45,453 bases of DNA, from the sequence record OR911938.1, one strand, 5' to 3'. Made by a program: the position numbers and the translations under genes. Of the stretch, positions 26,034 through 33,225 are shown piece by piece. This stretch comes from Escherichia phage vB_EcoS_SD276. Each line of letters begins with the position of its first letter. The stretch's first letter is position 1. The notes below the pieces were generated by a model. It did no database searches, was not told the origin of the DNA, and worked only from the letters and a program-made list of their open reading frames with translations.

Positions 26034-26063
26034 ACTATAGTGCAACCAACCTATTGGTTGCAA
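26034..26063 (-). promoter_or_regulatory. sigma70-like promoter (TTGCAA-N18-TATAGT)
   Basis: Hexamers on minus strand, GGTTGC boxes in spacer, followed by leader hairpin. Confidence 0.5.
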
Positions 26064-26521
26064 GTGAATTTTGCAACGTTTATTGCGTAAATTTTCGGGA
26101 CCAAATCACCACACGCCCGACGAATCGCCGCGATGTTCTTCTCGCAATCTTCAATGATGACCAGTTCCGATACGTCCGCGTAACAGACCATTTTGAACAC
26201 GGCGCACGCCTTAAACTCAGGCGGCGGGGTGTCGTCCAGCATGTGGCGCATAAACAACCGGCCTACTGGGAAGACCTCCAATTGCTCCGCGGTGGTGTCC
26301 CAACATTCTCGCTGCCGGTTGGTCAGATACGCGATCTCGAAGCCTTGCTCTTTATACATGCGCAACAACGGCAGCATATCCATGTTCAGGTCTTCGCGGA
26401 CGTGTGCTTTGTGCCACTTCGCCCAAAAGGTGGATTTAGTTTTTATGCCCGGCACCAGATCGGCACGCGCATCGCTTGAACCGTTAATAACGCCATCCAA
26501 ATCGCAAATCAATAATTTCAT
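26051..26521 (-). CDS. HAD-superfamily hydrolase (phosphatase-like)
   Basis: N-terminal HAD motif I LICDLDGVI and downstream acidic motif IIEDC. Confidence 0.55.
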   Translation of the reverse strand: MKLLICDLDGVINGSSDARADLVPGIKTKSTFWAKWHKAHVREDLNMDMLPLLRMYKEQGFEIAYLTNRQRECWDTTAEQLEVFPVGRLFMRHMLDDTPPPEFKACAVFKMVCYADVSELVIIEDCEKNIAAIRRACGDLVPKIYAINVAKFTCNQ

Positions 26522-26742
26522 TTTAAACTCTCAATAAGGGTGTAACGGGCGCTTCGCGCAGTAAAGGAGTTGCACACGAAATGGCAACGCTGAGTCATGA
26601 CAAGCCAACCGGTGAGGTCAAGGCCCATGATGTATTCGTGGCGAGACGCGCGCACCACACGATTGCGTCGCGGGTCAATACCGTAGTCTTTTTGCATTTG
26701 GTCTACTACCGCGGGGTCGCGGTCAACGATTAAGATATTCAA
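26518..26742 (-). CDS. hypothetical protein (74 aa)
   Basis: Overlapping start/stop with flanking genes in operon. Confidence 0.35.
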   Translation of the reverse strand: MNILIVDRDPAVVDQMQKDYGIDPRRNRVVRASRHEYIMGLDLTGWLVMTQRCHFVCNSFTARSARYTLIESLK

Positions 26743-27208
26743 GGAGTTCTCCTTCGCTCATTATTTCAATTTGTGCGCCGCCGAAGGGTGGCGCTTCGTC
26801 GAAGATTATCAATTGCTGGCACTTGTTATTGCTAGGCCCGACTTCGCCGGTGACGGCGTGTATAAATCTAATCCGCCAGTCCAGAAGAATTATCAGGTTT
26901 GCAGTCTTCCTGGCCAGCTTCGCCCACTTCGTCGACGTGTCCTGATTCAGTAGCATGACCGTCCGGCGTCCGTGCGCTGCGCACTTTACCCACGGCAGCG
27001 GATCGGAGTACGGCGGATTGCACCACTTCCACCCTTTCAACTCGGACCAGTCCACATCAAGCGCGCTGTGTTCTGCAGTGAAGTAACGCGGTAGCAGGTG
27101 GTTTGCATCGCTTGCCGCCATATCGTAACGGAATCGGTACTTCCGGCGAAGCGGTTTAAATAAAGCTGGTGGCGTGCGCCAGCTATCTTTTTGCTCACTC
27201 TTCAGCAT
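26723..27208 (-). CDS. DNA N6-adenine (or N4-cytosine) methyltransferase, phage Dam-like
   Basis: Catalytic tetrapeptide NPPY within WCNPPYSD; small size typical of phage Dam-family enzymes. Confidence 0.65.
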   Translation of the reverse strand: MLKSEQKDSWRTPPALFKPLRRKYRFRYDMAASDANHLLPRYFTAEHSALDVDWSELKGWKWCNPPYSDPLPWVKCAAHGRRTVMLLNQDTSTKWAKLARKTANLIILLDWRIRFIHAVTGEVGPSNNKCQQLIIFDEAPPFGGAQIEIMSEGELLEYLNR

Positions 27209-27659
27209 GGTCGGGATCTATCGCATACAGGGCAATCTTGTCACCTTTTTTCAGGATTCGCTGCAATCGCTGCGTCTCCGACACACCTAAAGGGCGCGCG
27301 TCCGGGTAGAAGTTGCCGTTTGTGGGGTTGCGCCACGCCATAAGCACCAGATCTTTCCGGTCGATCTTAGACTGGCGGCCCTTCGGTCGCACGTACTCCT
27401 CGGCCCGTTTGCAATGCTCGCGCAGACCTTCGGCGGTGACGCGGTTTAGTGCAACGCTGGTGGTGTATCCGGTGCGCTGCATAATCCCCATCAGTTCGAA
27501 AAGCAGTTCGAAGCGCTCCTCTAACTCTATGCGACGCTTTTCTTCCGTTTCATAGCTTAACAGGTAGGTATCCGCCAGCGCGTTCGCACGTTCGGCCTGT
27601 TCGCGGGCTTCGAGGCATTGCGCGGCCCAGTAATTTTTCTCTTCTTGTAAAATTTTCAT
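27195..27659 (-). CDS. hypothetical protein (154 aa)
   Basis: ORF downstream of promoter 27706-27734 (minus) and leader hairpin; start chosen at MKILQEE. Confidence 0.45.
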   Translation of the reverse strand: MKILQEEKNYWAAQCLEAREQAERANALADTYLLSYETEEKRRIELEERFELLFELMGIMQRTGYTTSVALNRVTAEGLREHCKRAEEYVRPKGRQSKIDRKDLVLMAWRNPTNGNFYPDARPLGVSETQRLQRILKKGDKIALYAIDPDHAEE

Positions 27660-27705
27660 CGTGTTGTCTCCAGGTATTAAAAAGGGCGTCCAACCGGACA
27701 CCCTA

Positions 27706-27734
27706 AATATAATGCAACCAATATGATTATGCAA
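27706..27734 (-). promoter_or_regulatory. sigma70-like promoter (TTGCAT-N17-TATATT)
   Basis: Hexamers on minus strand, TTGGTTGCAT repeated twice. Confidence 0.55.
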
Positions 27735-27739
27735 CCAAT

Positions 27740-28063
27740 TTACGCATAAAAGTTAGGATCGCGCGCTACGTCTACCAGATACAGGTTACTAATGCGGTTG
27801 CCGTAATGGCCTGGCGTGCGCTGACGGCACACAACGGCGAAGCCTGGGGGGATTGTATTGCCGGTCGCGATAATCCACGCCACGCGTGCGCCAGACAGCG
27901 TCTTGCCGTTGCATTCGATACGAGTACCGCCATCGGCAGTATTGAGGTTGCCAATCTTGCAGCCTGTTGACTTAAGGCGGATAACGCCGGTCTTGCTGTC
28001 GTAGGAAAAAAGCTGATTGGTCATTGCCACTGAAAAGTCGATGGCGTCGAATGCAGTATTCAT
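27740..28063 (-). CDS. HNH-like homing endonuclease-like protein (degenerate)
   Basis: 107 aa; overall pattern of small phage HNH/NUMOD4-like proteins (Gly-rich beta hairpin region, C-terminal H/N residues) but catalytic motif not clean. Confidence 0.35.
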   Translation of the reverse strand: MNTAFDAIDFSVAMTNQLFSYDSKTGVIRLKSTGCKIGNLNTADGGTRIECNGKTLSGARVAWIIATGNTIPPGFAVVCRQRTPGHYGNRISNLYLVDVARDPNFYA

Positions 28064-28755
28064 TTTAAATTTTCCTCGTTAACCGCTATCGCGAAGCCGC
28101 GCGGGGTGAGCGACCTGATTAATTTGGTGCGGGCAGATTTGCCTCCGAGGCGACTATACTGCTTCGAGTAACCTTTTTCAACGAAAACAGGTTTCTTCTC
28201 TGGCATACGGAAGCCGTTGCCGGTCCATAAGCAGGTCAACTTCGGATATGAATCGCGGGCGTTGATGTATTCAGGGAATAACGGGTGTACGTCATCCTCT
28301 GGCAAATAGCCTCCATACTCCCACGGGTCAAACGAGTGGTCCGGTTTACGCCATTGAGTGGAAAGCACACTGCGCGGATTCTCAATCATATACGGCACTT
28401 CGAAGAAATCACCCAGGTAAGCGGCGATCTTCGCGGTGCGCACCGCCTTAAGCTGGAAGGCAGGGTCTTTTGCACGCTTACGCGGGAACGCTGGCGCACC
28501 ACTAACCGCCAGATCCGTACACGGCGGGAATGCATAGATGATATCCGGCGTGCCGAAATCACCATTCATCGCGCGGTCCACGAAGTCCAGATCGATAAAC
28601 TCATTACGATATCGGATACCGCGCCCATAGATCCGGTAGTCCAGGTACGACCCGTGATCGGCTTCGGAGTAGTTGAAGCAATAACACTTATGCCCCATCT
28701 CGGCAGCACGCTCAATCATCAAGCCGCTGCCGTCAAACAATGACCAAATTATCAT
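28060..28755 (-). CDS. compact DNA cytosine-C5 methyltransferase-like protein
   Basis: Motif I SLFDGSG (FxGxG), motif IV FPPC (PC), motif VI ENP (ENV-like), QWRK after it; only 231 aa so variable/target-recognition region is very short. Confidence 0.5.
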   Translation of the reverse strand: MIIWSLFDGSGLMIERAAEMGHKCYCFNYSEADHGSYLDYRIYGRGIRYRNEFIDLDFVDRAMNGDFGTPDIIYAFPPCTDLAVSGAPAFPRKRAKDPAFQLKAVRTAKIAAYLGDFFEVPYMIENPRSVLSTQWRKPDHSFDPWEYGGYLPEDDVHPLFPEYINARDSYPKLTCLWTGNGFRMPEKKPVFVEKGYSKQYSRLGGKSARTKLIRSLTPRGFAIAVNEENLK

Positions 28756-30176
28756 TTGCGCGCCTTTTTAGCTTTCATGTATTCCATCAAGTCGTCCTGG
28801 ATATCGCGCTTACTGTCGCGACGCTCGGCGACCAGTTCATCCAGTGTGCCGCGCGCCTGGATAATGTAGACGAATACCGGACGAGGGTGTCCGGCTTGCA
28901 TCTGGCGGACAGGCCCGATACGCTCCACGATCTGCGCAAAGTGCTCATAGTTCCAGGTGTCTGAGAAGATAGCAAGGTGGTGCCCGCCATCCTGCAAGTT
29001 AAGGCCGTGACCCGCCGATGCCGGGTGTGCGAACATGATGGGGATCTCGCCCCTGTTCCACGCTTCCATATCCTTATTGCCTTGCTTACCCTTACCCATA
29101 GCGACGCCGTGTGGGAATTTCTTCTTAAGACGTGCCAGATCATGCTTGTACTGGTATGCGACGAGCAACGGTGCTCCGTTCAACTCCTCCACGATACTTT
29201 CCAGCGCGTCCAGTTTAGCGTCGTGAATTTTCACCCATTCGTCGGTGCGCTCGCCGTCTTCGTCGACTTTATATACGGCCCCGGAAGCAAGCTGAAGGCA
29301 CTTAATAGTCTTCGACGCGGCGTTAGCCGCCTCCACTGTTCCGCTTTCCAGTTCCGCAAATAGCTCCGCTTCGAACTGGTCATAAATCTTGCGGGCTTTC
29401 TTCGGCAGGTCCACAACAACCGGCGTATAGATTGGCTTGTCACATCCGAAGTATTCAGCCGCGTCAACGGTGAGCGATACGTCAGACAGGCGTTGTTGTA
29501 TTTCTTTCTCGGAGTTCTTTAGCGGGGCGTGCTGCATAGTGAAGCTGCCAGGCTTAACAGGCTTGCTAATAAACCAGCGGTCTGTGAATGCCTTATAACT
29601 ACTGCCGAGGCGTTCGCCACCGTCGACAAACCACGTCTGACCCCATAGGTCTTTCAGTCCGTTTGGTGCGGGTGTGCCGGTAAGGTTAATCCAGCGCTTG
29701 ACGCGCTTATGTGCGATCGCCGCCAGGGCGCGGGCGCGCTTACTTCCCTGCTTGCTGCGGTAGCCTTTCAGCTTAGTGGATTCATCGGCAACAACGACCG
29801 TAAAGGGCCACTCGTCGCCGCAATAGTCAACCAGCCACTCAACCACATCATAGTTAACACAAACCACGTTAGCGTCGCTCTCAAGCGCGGCGATGCGGTC
29901 CTTCTCTGACCCGGTGCCGTCTACTACCAGCAGGGCGGGGAAGCGCCATTTTTCTTGTTCCGGGGGCCATGTGCCCGATGCAACGCGCAGCGGGGCAAGC
30001 ACCAGTACGCGGTCCTCCTGGTTTGACAGGATGCCGGTCTGGAACATTTTATTCAGCGCCCACATGGTCGCGCCGGTTTTACCCGACCCCATTGTCGCCC
30101 AAATATTGCAGCGCTTATGCTTGAGGATGAACGCGGTTATCAACTTCTGATATTCGCGACGTCGGAAACGTGCCAT
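28752..30176 (-). CDS. ATP-dependent helicase (SF2, DEAD/SNF2-like)
   Basis: Walker A ATMGSGKTG, motif II VVADESTKLK, C-terminal helicase domain; start taken at MARF with SD AGGCGGA. Confidence 0.75.
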   Translation of the reverse strand: MARFRRREYQKLITAFILKHKRCNIWATMGSGKTGATMWALNKMFQTGILSNQEDRVLVLAPLRVASGTWPPEQEKWRFPALLVVDGTGSEKDRIAALESDANVVCVNYDVVEWLVDYCGDEWPFTVVVADESTKLKGYRSKQGSKRARALAAIAHKRVKRWINLTGTPAPNGLKDLWGQTWFVDGGERLGSSYKAFTDRWFISKPVKPGSFTMQHAPLKNSEKEIQQRLSDVSLTVDAAEYFGCDKPIYTPVVVDLPKKARKIYDQFEAELFAELESGTVEAANAASKTIKCLQLASGAVYKVDEDGERTDEWVKIHDAKLDALESIVEELNGAPLLVAYQYKHDLARLKKKFPHGVAMGKGKQGNKDMEAWNRGEIPIMFAHPASAGHGLNLQDGGHHLAIFSDTWNYEHFAQIVERIGPVRQMQAGHPRPVFVYIIQARGTLDELVAERRDSKRDIQDDLMEYMKAKKARK

Positions 30177-30180
30177 ATCT

Positions 30181-30405
30181 TTATTCCGCCTTTTTCCAGA
30201 CTTCGGTTTCACTGTTCCAGTTCCTTTTTGTGGCGTCGTAGTTGGTGCGGTGCCCGATGTGCACACCCGTCGCCCGGAAGCGCTTAAATTTTTGCCAGCA
30301 TACCGTCAACGGCAGCGGGTCATTTATGCCCGCAATAAACCATACGCGATCGCCTGGTTTGCATTCGCCCAGCTTGGTGAGTCGGTAATGTTCTTTCATC
30401 GTCAT
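30181..30405 (-). CDS. hypothetical protein (74 aa)
   Basis: ORF between helicase and zinc-ribbon genes. Confidence 0.35.
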   Translation of the reverse strand: MTMKEHYRLTKLGECKPGDRVWFIAGINDPLPLTVCWQKFKRFRATGVHIGHRTNYDATKRNWNSETEVWKKAE

Positions 30406-30441
30406 GCCCCCAAAAATGGCGGGGCAAGCCCGCCGTATTAA

Positions 30442-30615
30442 TTATTTTTGCTCTGCGCGGTAGCGGCGCTGCCGTTCGCGCTCTTTTTTATTGCGGCACG
30501 ATTTGCACTCTGCCCGATACCCGTCCGGGCTTCGCGCAGTCTTACCGGTGTATTTATGGAACTGGGATAGCGGTTTAACGCAGCCGCAATTACTGCAACG
30601 TTTTTCTTCAATCAT
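30442..30615 (-). CDS. small zinc-ribbon protein
   Basis: CSNCGC...CKSC four-Cys pattern, basic C-terminus; downstream of promoter 30647-30675 (minus). Confidence 0.4.
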   Translation of the reverse strand: MIEEKRCSNCGCVKPLSQFHKYTGKTARSPDGYRAECKSCRNKKERERQRRYRAEQK

Positions 30616-30646
30616 CTCTAAAACCCTCGATATGGCTAACCGGCAC

Positions 30647-30675
30647 ACTATACCGCTATGCGACCAATTCAGCAA
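30647..30675 (-). promoter_or_regulatory. sigma70-like promoter (TTGCTG-N17-TATAGT)
   Basis: Hexamers on minus strand upstream of zinc-ribbon gene. Confidence 0.45.
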
Positions 30676-30934
30676 CCAATAAATCACAGTCGGCAATGTT
30701 GTCTATAACGCGAACGTCAGCGCCGCGGCGGGCCATCCGCTCGTGTTCTCGTACCTGGTGCGGCTTAGGTTTGCCGCCTGGGCGCTTCACTTCGACGAAC
30801 ACTATTTTGCCGTTGATGATGATAATCAGATCGGGCGCACCCGAGCGCCCCTCCCATGCCACTTTGCGGCAGAATCCGCCGACGGCTTTCACCCGTCCCA
30901 TCAAGTGACTTTGAATCTTGCCTTCTGGTGTCAT
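30656..30934 (-). CDS. VRR-NUC domain nuclease
   Basis: Motif PDLIIIINGKIVFVEVKRPGGKPKPHQ (D...E-V-K...Q) typical of VRR-NUC; overlaps polymerase stop. Confidence 0.55.
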   Translation of the reverse strand: MTPEGKIQSHLMGRVKAVGGFCRKVAWEGRSGAPDLIIIINGKIVFVEVKRPGGKPKPHQVREHERMARRGADVRVIDNIADCDLLVAELVA

Positions 30935-33225
30935 TATTTCCTGTACCTGTACATAATGTCGCCTTCCGCTGCAAGCGGGAAGCCTTTCGCCCAAACCGGC
31001 AGGTCGCACATCAGCGCGCACAACTCCTCGGTTGTGTAGTCGTCGGTATCCGGCACTTCGGTTATCAGTTCATCGTGTACGGACAGTACGATCTCATACC
31101 CCGCAGCTTCAACGCCCGGCATGGACCATGCGAGGATATCGCGGCACAGCGCCTGCACGATGTTTTCCGTCAGTTTACCGCCGTAGGTGTACTGGAATCC
31201 CCACTGGCGCGTCGTCTGATTCTCACCCTGATATTTAATGCGGGTGCTGGTGCGCTTCTTGCCGGTGTCTTCGTCGATCTCGGTCGTGACAGACAGCGCG
31301 ATGCCGGGGTAGCTCATGATGCGCCCCGACGGTAACTCAATTTTCAACCACCACCCCGCGGCGTTCGGGTCGTCGCGCTCCTCGTCGAAGGTTGGGTCGT
31401 GCTTCGCCTTCGTGCGGACTATCTTGAGCGCTTTCCTACCATCCGGGCGAACGTTCGCGCCAGCCCAGTACGCTTTGCCAGGATTGCGGATCGCGCAGAG
31501 CACCGCGTCTTCCAGTTCAGCCCAAAATGCTACCGTCTTCGGGTGCGACTCACGCCACATACGTTTGATCGCATCACACGTCAGCCATACGTTTTTCGGC
31601 AGTATATAAGTTGGGCGCTCGTCTTTCTTGCCAGGCTTCGGCGGGCGCTTAGCTTCGTTAATGCGGGCGTATTCATATCCACGTTTCGCCGCTGCCCAAA
31701 TGTGATCGGGGAATGTGCCCTTCATGACGTCCGCCATCGCGTAAAGGTCGAGGCCCAGGTTTTTAGCGAACTGCAAGAACGCGGCAACGCCACCTCCATA
31801 GCCCAACCCCAATTCGCACGCCTTACCAATCTGGCGCAAGTCTTTGCGGTTGGCTTTAATGTATTCCGGGTCGAGGCCGAACATTTTACCGGCAGTCTCA
31901 CAATAAATATCGCGACCGGCCCTAAATACCATTAGCGCGGTTTTCTCGCCAGCGATCCAGGCGAGGCCACGCCCTTCCACGTTGGAGTAGTCCGCTACGA
32001 CAAACTTCTTGCCCTTCGCCGGAATAATGCACCCGCGAACGGTAGAGGCCGTTAGCTTCGATATGTCATATGCCCAGTGCGCTGTCCCGCGTAACAGGGA
32101 GTTGATGCCGTTGGTGAGCATGTGCGACCGCACCCAAAAGGATATATCGCTCTCGCCTTCACGGCGTTTAATCTTCCCTTCGTGGTCGTCGCTATACTCG
32201 CCGCGTGCCAGGTTTTGAGGCTGGAATCCTTTACCGGCCCAACGCAGTGTGCGCTTTGCCCCGCCATACTGGAGACACCCACGGCGGCGACCATCTGCGG
32301 ATAGGCCATTAACGAGCGGATTGTACTTAGTCGACGCCGTGGATGACGCACCGAGGCGCATCTCAATAAGAACTTTGCCTTCGTCGGGGAAGTCTGGATC
32401 TTCCAGCAGGTCGTTAAGCGTGGATTTCTGCGCGTTGTGGATTGTGAACGCAGGAGCGAGGTCGCGCAGCGCTGGCAGGAAGTCATTGCCTGTCAGCTTA
32501 CCGCCGAAGCGCTCCCAGGCTTCTTCCTTCAACTCTTCTTTATGCGCCTGTACCGCCTTGATCGCAGCGCGCGCCAGGTCAACGTCCACATAGAAGCCGC
32601 GGTCATTGATCAACTGGTCAATAAGCAGGATTTCGTCTTCCTTCGGCGTATTACCCCAGTCCGGTATGCGCCAATAGACTTCCCTCATCGCGATGATATC
32701 CAGCGCGGCATAGCGCAGGAATTTAGCCCATTCTTCAGGGTGAGTCTCGCGGGTGTAGCGGCGGATTTTGTAGGTCTTAGGGGTAGGCTTACAGAATCGT
32801 TTGATCAGCGCCTTGCCCGCCTTATCCTTCGCGTGATCTGCGTCAACTCCCAGCACCTGGCACTGCATATCGAGGCTACCAGGCAGCGCGTGCCGAAAGG
32901 CCATAATCATGGTATCTTCGATCTGACCTACCGGCAGGTCAATACCCCACTTCTCGCGAATAACCAGGCGGTCAAACAGGAGGCCGTTAGCCATCACGAT
33001 TTTTGCTTTCTTGCGCGATACCCGGCGGAGCGCCTTGCGCAGTTCACGCGGCATTGTGGGGGACTCGGTGCAATCCCATGTCTGCACGCGGCCCTCGTCG
33101 ATGGCGTATGTGCAAATCATAATCTCGGTAGTTGGGTGTTCCGCGTAGGCGTATGCGCCCACTTTCTTCAGATCCACCCCGCTAAATGTCTCGGTATCGA
33201 GAAACAGGCGTTCGAAGTCTTTCAT
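30934..33225 (-). CDS. DNA polymerase I-type (family A) with N-terminal 3'-5' exonuclease
   Basis: 763 aa; Exo I motif FLDTETF, polymerase motifs (R...GK...LG.GYGG motif A/B region, YGG, VHDE motif C). Confidence 0.9.
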   Translation of the reverse strand: MKDFERLFLDTETFSGVDLKKVGAYAYAEHPTTEIMICTYAIDEGRVQTWDCTESPTMPRELRKALRRVSRKKAKIVMANGLLFDRLVIREKWGIDLPVGQIEDTMIMAFRHALPGSLDMQCQVLGVDADHAKDKAGKALIKRFCKPTPKTYKIRRYTRETHPEEWAKFLRYAALDIIAMREVYWRIPDWGNTPKEDEILLIDQLINDRGFYVDVDLARAAIKAVQAHKEELKEEAWERFGGKLTGNDFLPALRDLAPAFTIHNAQKSTLNDLLEDPDFPDEGKVLIEMRLGASSTASTKYNPLVNGLSADGRRRGCLQYGGAKRTLRWAGKGFQPQNLARGEYSDDHEGKIKRREGESDISFWVRSHMLTNGINSLLRGTAHWAYDISKLTASTVRGCIIPAKGKKFVVADYSNVEGRGLAWIAGEKTALMVFRAGRDIYCETAGKMFGLDPEYIKANRKDLRQIGKACELGLGYGGGVAAFLQFAKNLGLDLYAMADVMKGTFPDHIWAAAKRGYEYARINEAKRPPKPGKKDERPTYILPKNVWLTCDAIKRMWRESHPKTVAFWAELEDAVLCAIRNPGKAYWAGANVRPDGRKALKIVRTKAKHDPTFDEERDDPNAAGWWLKIELPSGRIMSYPGIALSVTTEIDEDTGKKRTSTRIKYQGENQTTRQWGFQYTYGGKLTENIVQALCRDILAWSMPGVEAAGYEIVLSVHDELITEVPDTDDYTTEELCALMCDLPVWAKGFPLAAEGDIMYRYRK

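Follow-up and report, generated by a model that had tools for sequence, protein, structure and literature searches.

A compact Dcm-like cytosine-C5 methyltransferase, probably active on its own, in the replication block of an Escherichia coli Dhillonvirus

Can a protein of 231 residues, with the catalytic motifs of a DNA cytosine-C5 methyltransferase (C5-MTase) and little more than a hundred residues after the last of them, still be a complete enzyme? The question is raised by an open reading frame at positions 28060-28755 of the window, by which we mean the whole stretch of DNA analysed, 45,453 nucleotides of Escherichia phage vB_EcoS_SD276 (OR911938.1). The source genome is that of a Dhillonvirus, an HK578-like siphovirus of E. 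coli. An earlier note, written from the sequence alone, had proposed for this protein a minimal or non-specific methylase, a subunit needing a partner, or an enzyme repurposed for another C5 pyrimidine modification. We consider it very probable that the ORF encodes an active, stand-alone, orphan C5-MTase of a compact phage Dcm-like family, likely with CCWGG as its target. The object as such is already known, being a widespread and already annotated 'Dcm-like' orphan methyltransferase of phages with a characterised close relative.

Gene block and catalytic motifs

Reading of the sequence confirmed the 231-codon frame and placed it on the minus strand, which had been left unstated before; it runs from ATG to TGA, and the plus-strand reading of 28060-28755 is broken by many stops. 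The gene is part of a block on the minus strand devoted to replication and DNA metabolism, in which the following features were located:

26723..27208, minus strand: Dam-type N6-adenine methyltransferase of 161 aa (PF05869, E=9.8e-36), the second orphan methyltransferase of the block
27740-28063, minus strand: 107-aa HNH-like ORF, downstream of the MTase gene; the equivalent gene in phage HK1 is labelled 'HNH endonuclease'
28060..28063, minus strand: ATGA overlap of the MTase stop with the start of the 107-aa HNH-like ORF (read from the sequence)
28060..28755, minus strand: compact Dcm-like DNA cytosine-C5 methyltransferase, orphan, phage-encoded, 231 aa
28752..28755, minus strand: ATGA overlap of the helicase stop with the MTase start (read from the sequence)
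28752-30266, minus strand: SNF2-family helicase, upstream of the MTase gene (domains PF00176/PF00270)
30656-31021, minus strand: VRR-NUC nuclease
30934-33225, minus strand: family A DNA polymerase

Phage PC2 matches the region 27000-31000 at 95% identity, and at least 80% of this stretch is covered in 150 phage records. Copies of the MTase gene with at least 95% identity occur in at least 145 phage records. In GenBank the orthologue goes by the names 'DNA cytosine methyltransferase', 'putative DNA cytosine methyltransferase C5', 'Dcm' or 'hypothetical protein'. A near-identical gene is present in phage 'bob', the recorded host of which is E. coli K-12 MG1655.

The motifs I, IV and VI that the earlier note had recognised are found in this order in the protein, as FDGSG at residues 7-11, FPPC at 76-79 and ENP at 125-127. 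Together with the regions that follow them they are positioned as listed here:

28723..28740, minus strand: motif I / SAM-binding loop L6-F-D-G-S-G11, after strand 1 (residues 2-6); from the sequence
28498..28530, minus strand: motif IV F76-P-P-C79-T-D-L-A-V-S-G86 with the predicted catalytic nucleophile Cys79; from conservation
28375..28386, minus strand: motif VI I124-E-N-P127, Glu125 being the predicted N3 proton donor; from conservation
28219..28257, minus strand: variant motif VIII region R167-D-S-Y170-P-K172-L-T-C-L-W177-T-G, including core strand 7 (174-179); from conservation
28165..28218, minus strand: short variable loop, residues 180-197, in place of a target-recognition domain (TRD); from the AF2 model and conservation
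28063..28149, minus strand: C-terminal block L203-G-G-K-S...T210-K..R214-S-L-T-P-R-G-F-A in place of motifs IX/X, forming helices 208-215 and 219-229; from conservation

Motif IV fits the canonical PCQxFSxAG pattern. Translated in all six frames, the window contains F.G.G / PC / EN[VPIL] in this order a single time, and 12 of 200,000 shuffles of the MTase protein produced it. Conservation is the more decisive evidence. Across 78 diverse family representatives (34-55% identity) C79, G86, E125, P144, Y170, W177 and P185 are invariant. Near-invariant positions include K93 as well as F76/P77/T80, N126/P127, D168/K172/T174 and R214/S215/P218/G220, these four groups, the last with A224 added, being conserved in at least 90% of the set. 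This pattern is as expected for an enzyme that uses a Pro-Cys nucleophile and an ENV glutamate. Motif I reads SLFDxTG in the wider family and retains only its last glycine throughout; in motif II the clade of the window protein has Asn28 where an Asp is otherwise near-invariant.

Behind motif VI the protein departs from the canonical layout. Exactly 106 residues follow Glu125, and the earlier estimate of about 100, too few for a normal C-terminal part, thus holds. The canonical QxRxR of motif VIII is absent from the protein, in which an R167-D-x-Y-x-K172-x-T block precedes strand 7 instead, and no separate target-recognition or small domain stands between VIII and IX. That place is taken by some 18 variable residues (180-197), which differ in length among relatives, are poorly conserved and include the stretch after the invariant P185. 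The GN(A/S)V of canonical motif X was not seen in the protein sequence, and a single block, LGGKS..TK.IRSLTPRGFA, occupies the place of motifs IX and X. The C-terminal block IRSLTPRGFAIAV resembles motif IX (RxLTxRExARLQGFP) along an hhalign path that lacks statistical significance; it may also resemble the DNMT3 form of motif X (GRSWSVPV in DNMT3A).

Predicted fold and family

An AF2 model built from an alignment of 54 relatives has a mean pLDDT of 91.9 and a pTM of 0.90. It predicts a class I, Rossmann-like, seven-stranded SAM-methyltransferase core (strands at residues 2-6, 23-28, 47-51, 72-75, 122-126, 140-142 and 174-179) that is most like known C5-MTases, followed by three short C-terminal helices (198-203, 208-215 and 219-229). 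Confidence dips to a pLDDT of about 79 at the loop 180-197. In a Foldseek search of the PDB all 50 matches at E<=1e-3 were DNA C5-MTases, mostly DNMT3; they comprise DNMT3A/B/C, the prophage methyltransferase 3g7u, MET1 and DNMT1. The best matches in a library of viral structures were members of the family itself (TM 0.82-0.88) and other phage cytosine methylases of 200-250 aa. According to the model the protein is essentially the catalytic Rossmann domain of a C5-MTase alone.

Scans of the query against Pfam and NCBIfam gave no match at E<=10, and three relatives of 63% identity reach 24.7-28.5 bits with PF00145 (gathering cut-off 22) over motifs I-IV only. Neither phmmer nor two family profile searches found anything significant among the PDB sequences, the best C5-MTase being DNMT2 at E=0.63, and these searches revealed no member of the compact phage Dcm-like family with a solved structure. 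When the family profile was aligned by hhalign with E. coli Dcm alone or with an alignment of its orthologues, the E-values (0.055 and 0.07) were not significant, the motifs were colinear, and the Dcm-seeded set comprised only orthologues of at least 74% identity, too narrow for a good profile. Along this non-significant path motif I of the window protein pairs with DLFAGIGG of Dcm, and IRSLTPRGFA with RRLTPRECAR (motif IX).

The protein matches PHROG 757 'DNA methyltransferase' over nearly its whole length (residues 1-229, E=2e-82). A word-indexed protein search returned 2,886 close relatives and an exhaustive search of 50%-identity representatives (E<=1e-3) 823 clusters, nearly all of 210-280 aa, with median lengths of 232 aa and 234 aa, respectively; among the best 149 of the 823 representatives, 106 measure 200-290 aa and seven at least 300 aa. 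This tight distribution shows that the short length is a stable family trait rather than the result of truncation or of a mis-called start. The compactness that had appeared unusual in the single sequence is consequently a property of the family, in which some truncated members are shorter still (P0004, P0015 and P0113, 148-195 aa).

A tblastn search found a match in 1,511 phage records. Going by organism name, host and genome size, these include other Dhillonvirus, Drexlerviridae (ISF001, tunzivis), Kagunavirus and many Klebsiella phages of about 50 kb, as well as large phages (135-166 kb) of Escherichia, Salmonella, Enterobacter and Cronobacter, and Vibrio phages. A profile search of genome contigs with an alignment of the closer relatives yielded 30 loci in 185,579 species genomes (one genome per species), mostly on MAG contigs. 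The sole chromosomal copy examined, from Burkholderia cenocepacia, lies in a prophage beside a RecE-like exonuclease and a second DNA methyltransferase, with no recognisable restriction gene next to it. Judged from these searches, the family is large and almost purely phage-borne.

Activity and alternative explanations

The link to experiment runs through phage Bas06 KarlJaspers (MZ501090), one of the BASEL phages, in which a gene of 711 bp bears the label 'Dcm-like C5 cytosine methyltransferase'. Its product shows 54% identity to the window protein from end to end (E=1e-86), has 236 aa as against 231 aa, and shares the C-terminal block IRSLTPRGFA without a difference. Its residues C82, E128 and K175 align with C79, E125 and K172, whereas its K176 corresponds to Leu173. 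The host phages differ: KarlJaspers belongs to the Drexlerviridae (Hanrivervirus) and has the gene in another neighbourhood.

Phage K42 is a strain with 95.4% identity to Bas06, and the product of its 711-bp dcm triggers the defence by retron Ec86 (bioRxiv 10.1101/2023.08.16.553469; journal version Wang et al. 2024, Cell Rep 43:114857). All four escaper phages carried lesions within dcm or immediately upstream of it, Dcm is encoded in 34 of 35 Ec86-sensitive phages, and K42 Dcm expressed alone was toxic only when the retron was present (10.1101/2023.08.16.553469). When wild-type K42 Dcm was supplied by itself from a plasmid, the 5mC content of msDNA by LC-MS was high; it was low with the empty vector and with the C82A/E128A/K175A/K176A mutant, for which K175 had been picked as a substrate-binding residue (10.1101/2023.08.16.553469). 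Since the K42 enzyme methylated msDNA by itself, at least one member of the family is an active and self-sufficient C5 DNA methyltransferase. The same is to be expected, by homology, of the window protein. The suggestion of a minimal methylase is accordingly the part of the earlier interpretation that stands, a short loop of about 18 residues replacing the TRD.

A C5-MTase polypeptide lacking the C-terminal motifs is not without precedent. M.AquI and M.EcoHK31I are split, and in their manner the window protein might be one subunit, with a partner supplying the recognition domain and motifs IX/X. The strongly reduced C-terminal third, the missing GN(A/S)V and the translational coupling to the downstream 107-aa ORF would agree with such an arrangement. 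We nevertheless regard it as very improbable. M.AquI and M.EcoHK31I need a second polypeptide, whereas none was found adjacent to or inside the window gene: its neighbours are a helicase and an HNH-like ORF, the latter, which relatives have annotated as HNH endonuclease, is without a counterpart beside the Bas06 or KP36 genes, and the alternative-frame ORFs inside the MTase gene are not conserved in Bas06. Moreover, the family is found in many unrelated gene contexts with neighbours that differ between phage groups, the K42 enzyme worked alone from a plasmid, and the AF2 core is complete, closed by the C-terminal helices of the protein itself. The reading as a partner subunit is hence rejected. 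That of another C5 pyrimidine modification appears equally improbable. A carboxymethyl, hydroxymethyl or similar product is at odds with the strong and specific rise of 5mC caused by the wild-type homologue, and no genes for Cx-SAM synthase, hydroxymethylase or glycosyltransferase are annotated in a related Dhillonvirus genome. Structural scores to the cytosine C5-carboxymethyltransferase 8yf3 are no better than those to ordinary methyltransferases, DNMT3B scoring higher; an RNA target in the manner of DNMT2 fares no better, as the DNMT2 scores do not exceed those of plain DNA methyltransferases. The resistance of AAS23 and KP36 phage DNA to EcoRII, discussed below, would likewise fit plain Dcm-type methylation.

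We also have to consider that the Dhillonvirus copy might be decayed or catalytically dead, kept for DNA binding or for nothing. The replacement of the motif II Asp by Asn28, the Leu at the position of K176 of the K42 enzyme and the truncated relatives of 148-195 aa could be taken in this sense. Against it stand the full-length frame with every invariant family residue intact and the great number of near-identical phage copies. Asn28 is invariant in 54 relatives (58-72% identity), which suggests selection rather than decay, and a dead copy seems to us improbable, if marginally less so than a split enzyme. The preferred reading thus remains that of an active orphan methyltransferase, and the alternative of most weight concerns not whether it methylates cytosine but where.

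Target specificity and biological role

Two further relatives provide indications of the target. Gp52 of Pantoea phage AAS23 (235 aa, 52% identity to the window protein) gave an HHpred match of 99.7% to a Shigella cytosine methyltransferase structure, and the restriction patterns of AAS23 DNA indicate Dcm methylation (PMC8004638). Klebsiella phage KP36 encodes gp74 (230 aa, 44% identity), annotated only 'DNA methyltransferase', in which FPSC stands where the window protein has FPPC. Its DNA has 155 EcoRII sites and is uncut by EcoRII; no cytosine methylase of the phage was recognised, and the methylation was credited to host Dcm (PMC3620542). Both sets of EcoRII data fit CCWGG methylation, while the growth hosts may carry their own Dcm, a confounder throughout. 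In the window itself CCWGG is not avoided (153 observed, 167 expected), and both CCWGG and GATC are undepleted, which fits protection by methylation as weak evidence. The literature searched yielded no methylome or restriction data specific to Dhillonvirus, and no base-resolution data on the specificity of the compact Dcm-like family.

E. coli Dcm and the M.EcoRII type (PF00145 + PF18284) have motifs I, IV and VI colinear with those of the window protein and probably the same chemistry, possibly also the same target site. However, E. coli Dcm, at 472 aa, is twice the size of the phage enzyme, with a complete recognition domain and an extension at its N-terminus, and the phage enzyme has no Vsr partner. 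The catalytic domains of DNMT3A and DNMT3B, the nearest solved folds, are only 13-16% identical to the window protein; they measure about 285 aa, keep motifs IX and X, form oligomers with DNMT3L and read CpG.

The authors of the K42 study took the Dcm site as given, from host Dcm, and found that defence was lost when CCTGG of the msDNA was changed to AATGG, ACTGG or CATGG (10.1101/2023.08.16.553469). MG1655, the host of these experiments, carries dcm. We consider CCWGG the probable target, at somewhat better than an even chance, and go no higher because the control msDNA in this dcm+ host had little 5mC; a difference in dose alone could account for this, but so could phage and host enzymes that prefer different sites or substrates.

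An active C5 DNA methyltransferase with a specificity unlike that of Dcm, be it for a site that is shorter or degenerate, for the outer C of CCWGG, or for DNA in hairpin or single-stranded form, is therefore an alternative that we hold to be clearly less likely, yet serious. It would agree with the absence of a TRD or small domain, only about 18 variable residues separating strand 7 from the C-terminal block, with DNMT3A/B, readers of CpG only, as structural neighbours, and with the rise of msDNA 5mC over a low control in dcm+ MG1655. The msDNA mutations do not pin down the modified base, as defence was lost with either C of CCTGG. On the other hand, overexpression against a low dosage of host Dcm could explain the msDNA result, and the EcoRII resistance of AAS23 and KP36 DNA fits methylation of the inner C of CCWGG. 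Wild-type K-12 carries McrBC, which cleaves DNA with 5mC preceded by a purine, so that broad methylation would presumably be costly to a phage such as 'bob', which has the near-identical gene and is recorded on K-12 MG1655. The lack of a TRD leads us to entertain, tentatively, that the enzyme is either site-specific through an undescribed mode of recognition or differs from host Dcm in specificity or substrate preference. Candidate modes may be loops of the catalytic domain, or a homodimer spanning the palindromic CCWGG.

On the preferred reading, the MTase would be made from the minus-strand replication block, translationally coupled to the upstream SNF2-type helicase. By homology, the target cytosine would be flipped out and attacked at C6 by Cys79, and the methyl group of SAM would pass to C5 before the enzyme is released. 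In place of a recognition domain, DNA contacts may come from the loop 180-197, the conserved segment 128-173 and the basic C-terminal block. Methylation of CCWGG would shield the phage DNA from restriction of the EcoRII type and, as a side effect, would be an activity of the kind sensed by retron Eco1/Ec86.

We propose to name the gene Dcm-like orphan C5 DNA methyltransferase, as it is missed by Pfam and NCBIfam and is 'hypothetical' in many GenBank records. The family is in effect a minimal C5-MTase produced by nature, some 100 residues shorter than M.HhaI, and may be of use for structural work or as a compact tool enzyme. Two self-methylation activities against restriction would be at the disposal of this Dhillonvirus, the Dcm-like MTase and the Dam-type enzyme encoded 850 bp downstream. 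Read anew, the case of KP36 suggests that in some phages the DNA methylation published as due to "host Dcm" may have its source in a phage gene. The activity of this family is of the kind that makes phages visible to retron Eco1/Ec86, and if its specificity or substrate preference differs from that of host Dcm, this would explain how the retron tells phage from host methylation.

Genes flanking the C5 methyltransferase

The compact 231-aa cytosine-C5 methyltransferase (28060-28755, minus strand) of phage vB_EcoS_SD276 lies among the following genes:

26051-26521, minus strand: 156-aa protein, weak HAD/acid-phosphatase-B match (PF03767)
26723-27208, minus strand: Dam-type N6-adenine methyltransferase, 161 aa (PF05869, E=9.8e-36)
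27740-28063, minus strand: HNH-like 107-aa ORF, labelled "HNH endonuclease" in relatives
28752-30266, minus strand: SNF2-type helicase, longest ORF 504 aa from a GTG start

In the same strand block, some 850 bp separate the C5 gene from the Dam-type gene downstream of it, and the phage therefore has two orphan methyltransferases. Wedged between them is the 107-aa ORF, whose ATG overlaps the stop of the C5 gene and which has no Pfam match; it appears to be a homing-endonuclease-like gene that is short or degenerate. The true start of the helicase is probably an internal codon of the 504-aa ORF, because the orthologue in the related phage HK1 is annotated with 474 aa. We interpret the 156-aa protein as probably a polynucleotide kinase/phosphatase-like enzyme, because the annotation of the polynucleotide kinase of Klebsiella phage KP36 also cites PF03767, a family that the window protein matches with 23.8 bits, under the cut-off of 27.

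Shortened and fused relatives

Several close relatives of the C5 enzyme are considerably shorter, namely P0004 (195 aa), P0011 (165 aa), P0015 (148 aa, with 24 member sequences) and P0113 (148 aa, with its match split into three stretches). These much shorter or piecewise-matching relatives display 84-99% identity, and several related genomes align to the C5 gene region in two to three pieces with approximately 240-460 extra bases. That such close relatives are far shorter, or match in several pieces only, suggests internally deleted or interrupted gene copies in some Dhillonvirus-like phages.

Enlarged architectures are likewise observed, in P0218 (453 aa), P0224 (414 aa), P0245 (401 aa) and the viral structure library (BFVD) entries A0A6J5SE15 (1397 aa) and A0A6J5NPY6 (1126 aa). 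In a few relatives the compact core is fused behind some 180 additional N-terminal residues that lack any Pfam match; in others the core lies inside very large phage proteins, one of them described with a helicase/UvrB N-terminal domain.

Three records carry non-enterobacterial host labels, yet closely match coliphage sequence. Acinetobacter phage NJ01 (OQ221563) is 92.7% identical to window positions 27000-31000, and Campylobacter phages A147 (MG065644) and A136 (MG065687) possess methyltransferase copies at 53% and 44% identity, respectively. The host labels of all three look doubtful.

Target sites and the source of methylation in KP36

The presumed target sites of both phage methyltransferases are not depleted in the whole window, GATC being present at 187 sites (O/E 0.88). 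CTAG is strongly under-represented throughout the window (16 observed versus 52 expected from a Markov model), and CTGCAG (4 versus 11 expected), GGWCC (O/E 0.65) and GGCC (O/E 0.72) are also low.

The compact C5 family includes a gene of KP36:

NC_029099 47552-48244, minus strand: gp74, annotated solely as "DNA methyltransferase", 44% identity to the window enzyme

The DNA of KP36 was reported in 2013 to be EcoRII-resistant; its authors found no phage cytosine methylase and credited the methylation to the host (PMC3620542). KP36 gp74 is a plausible alternative source of the methylation in KP36 DNA.
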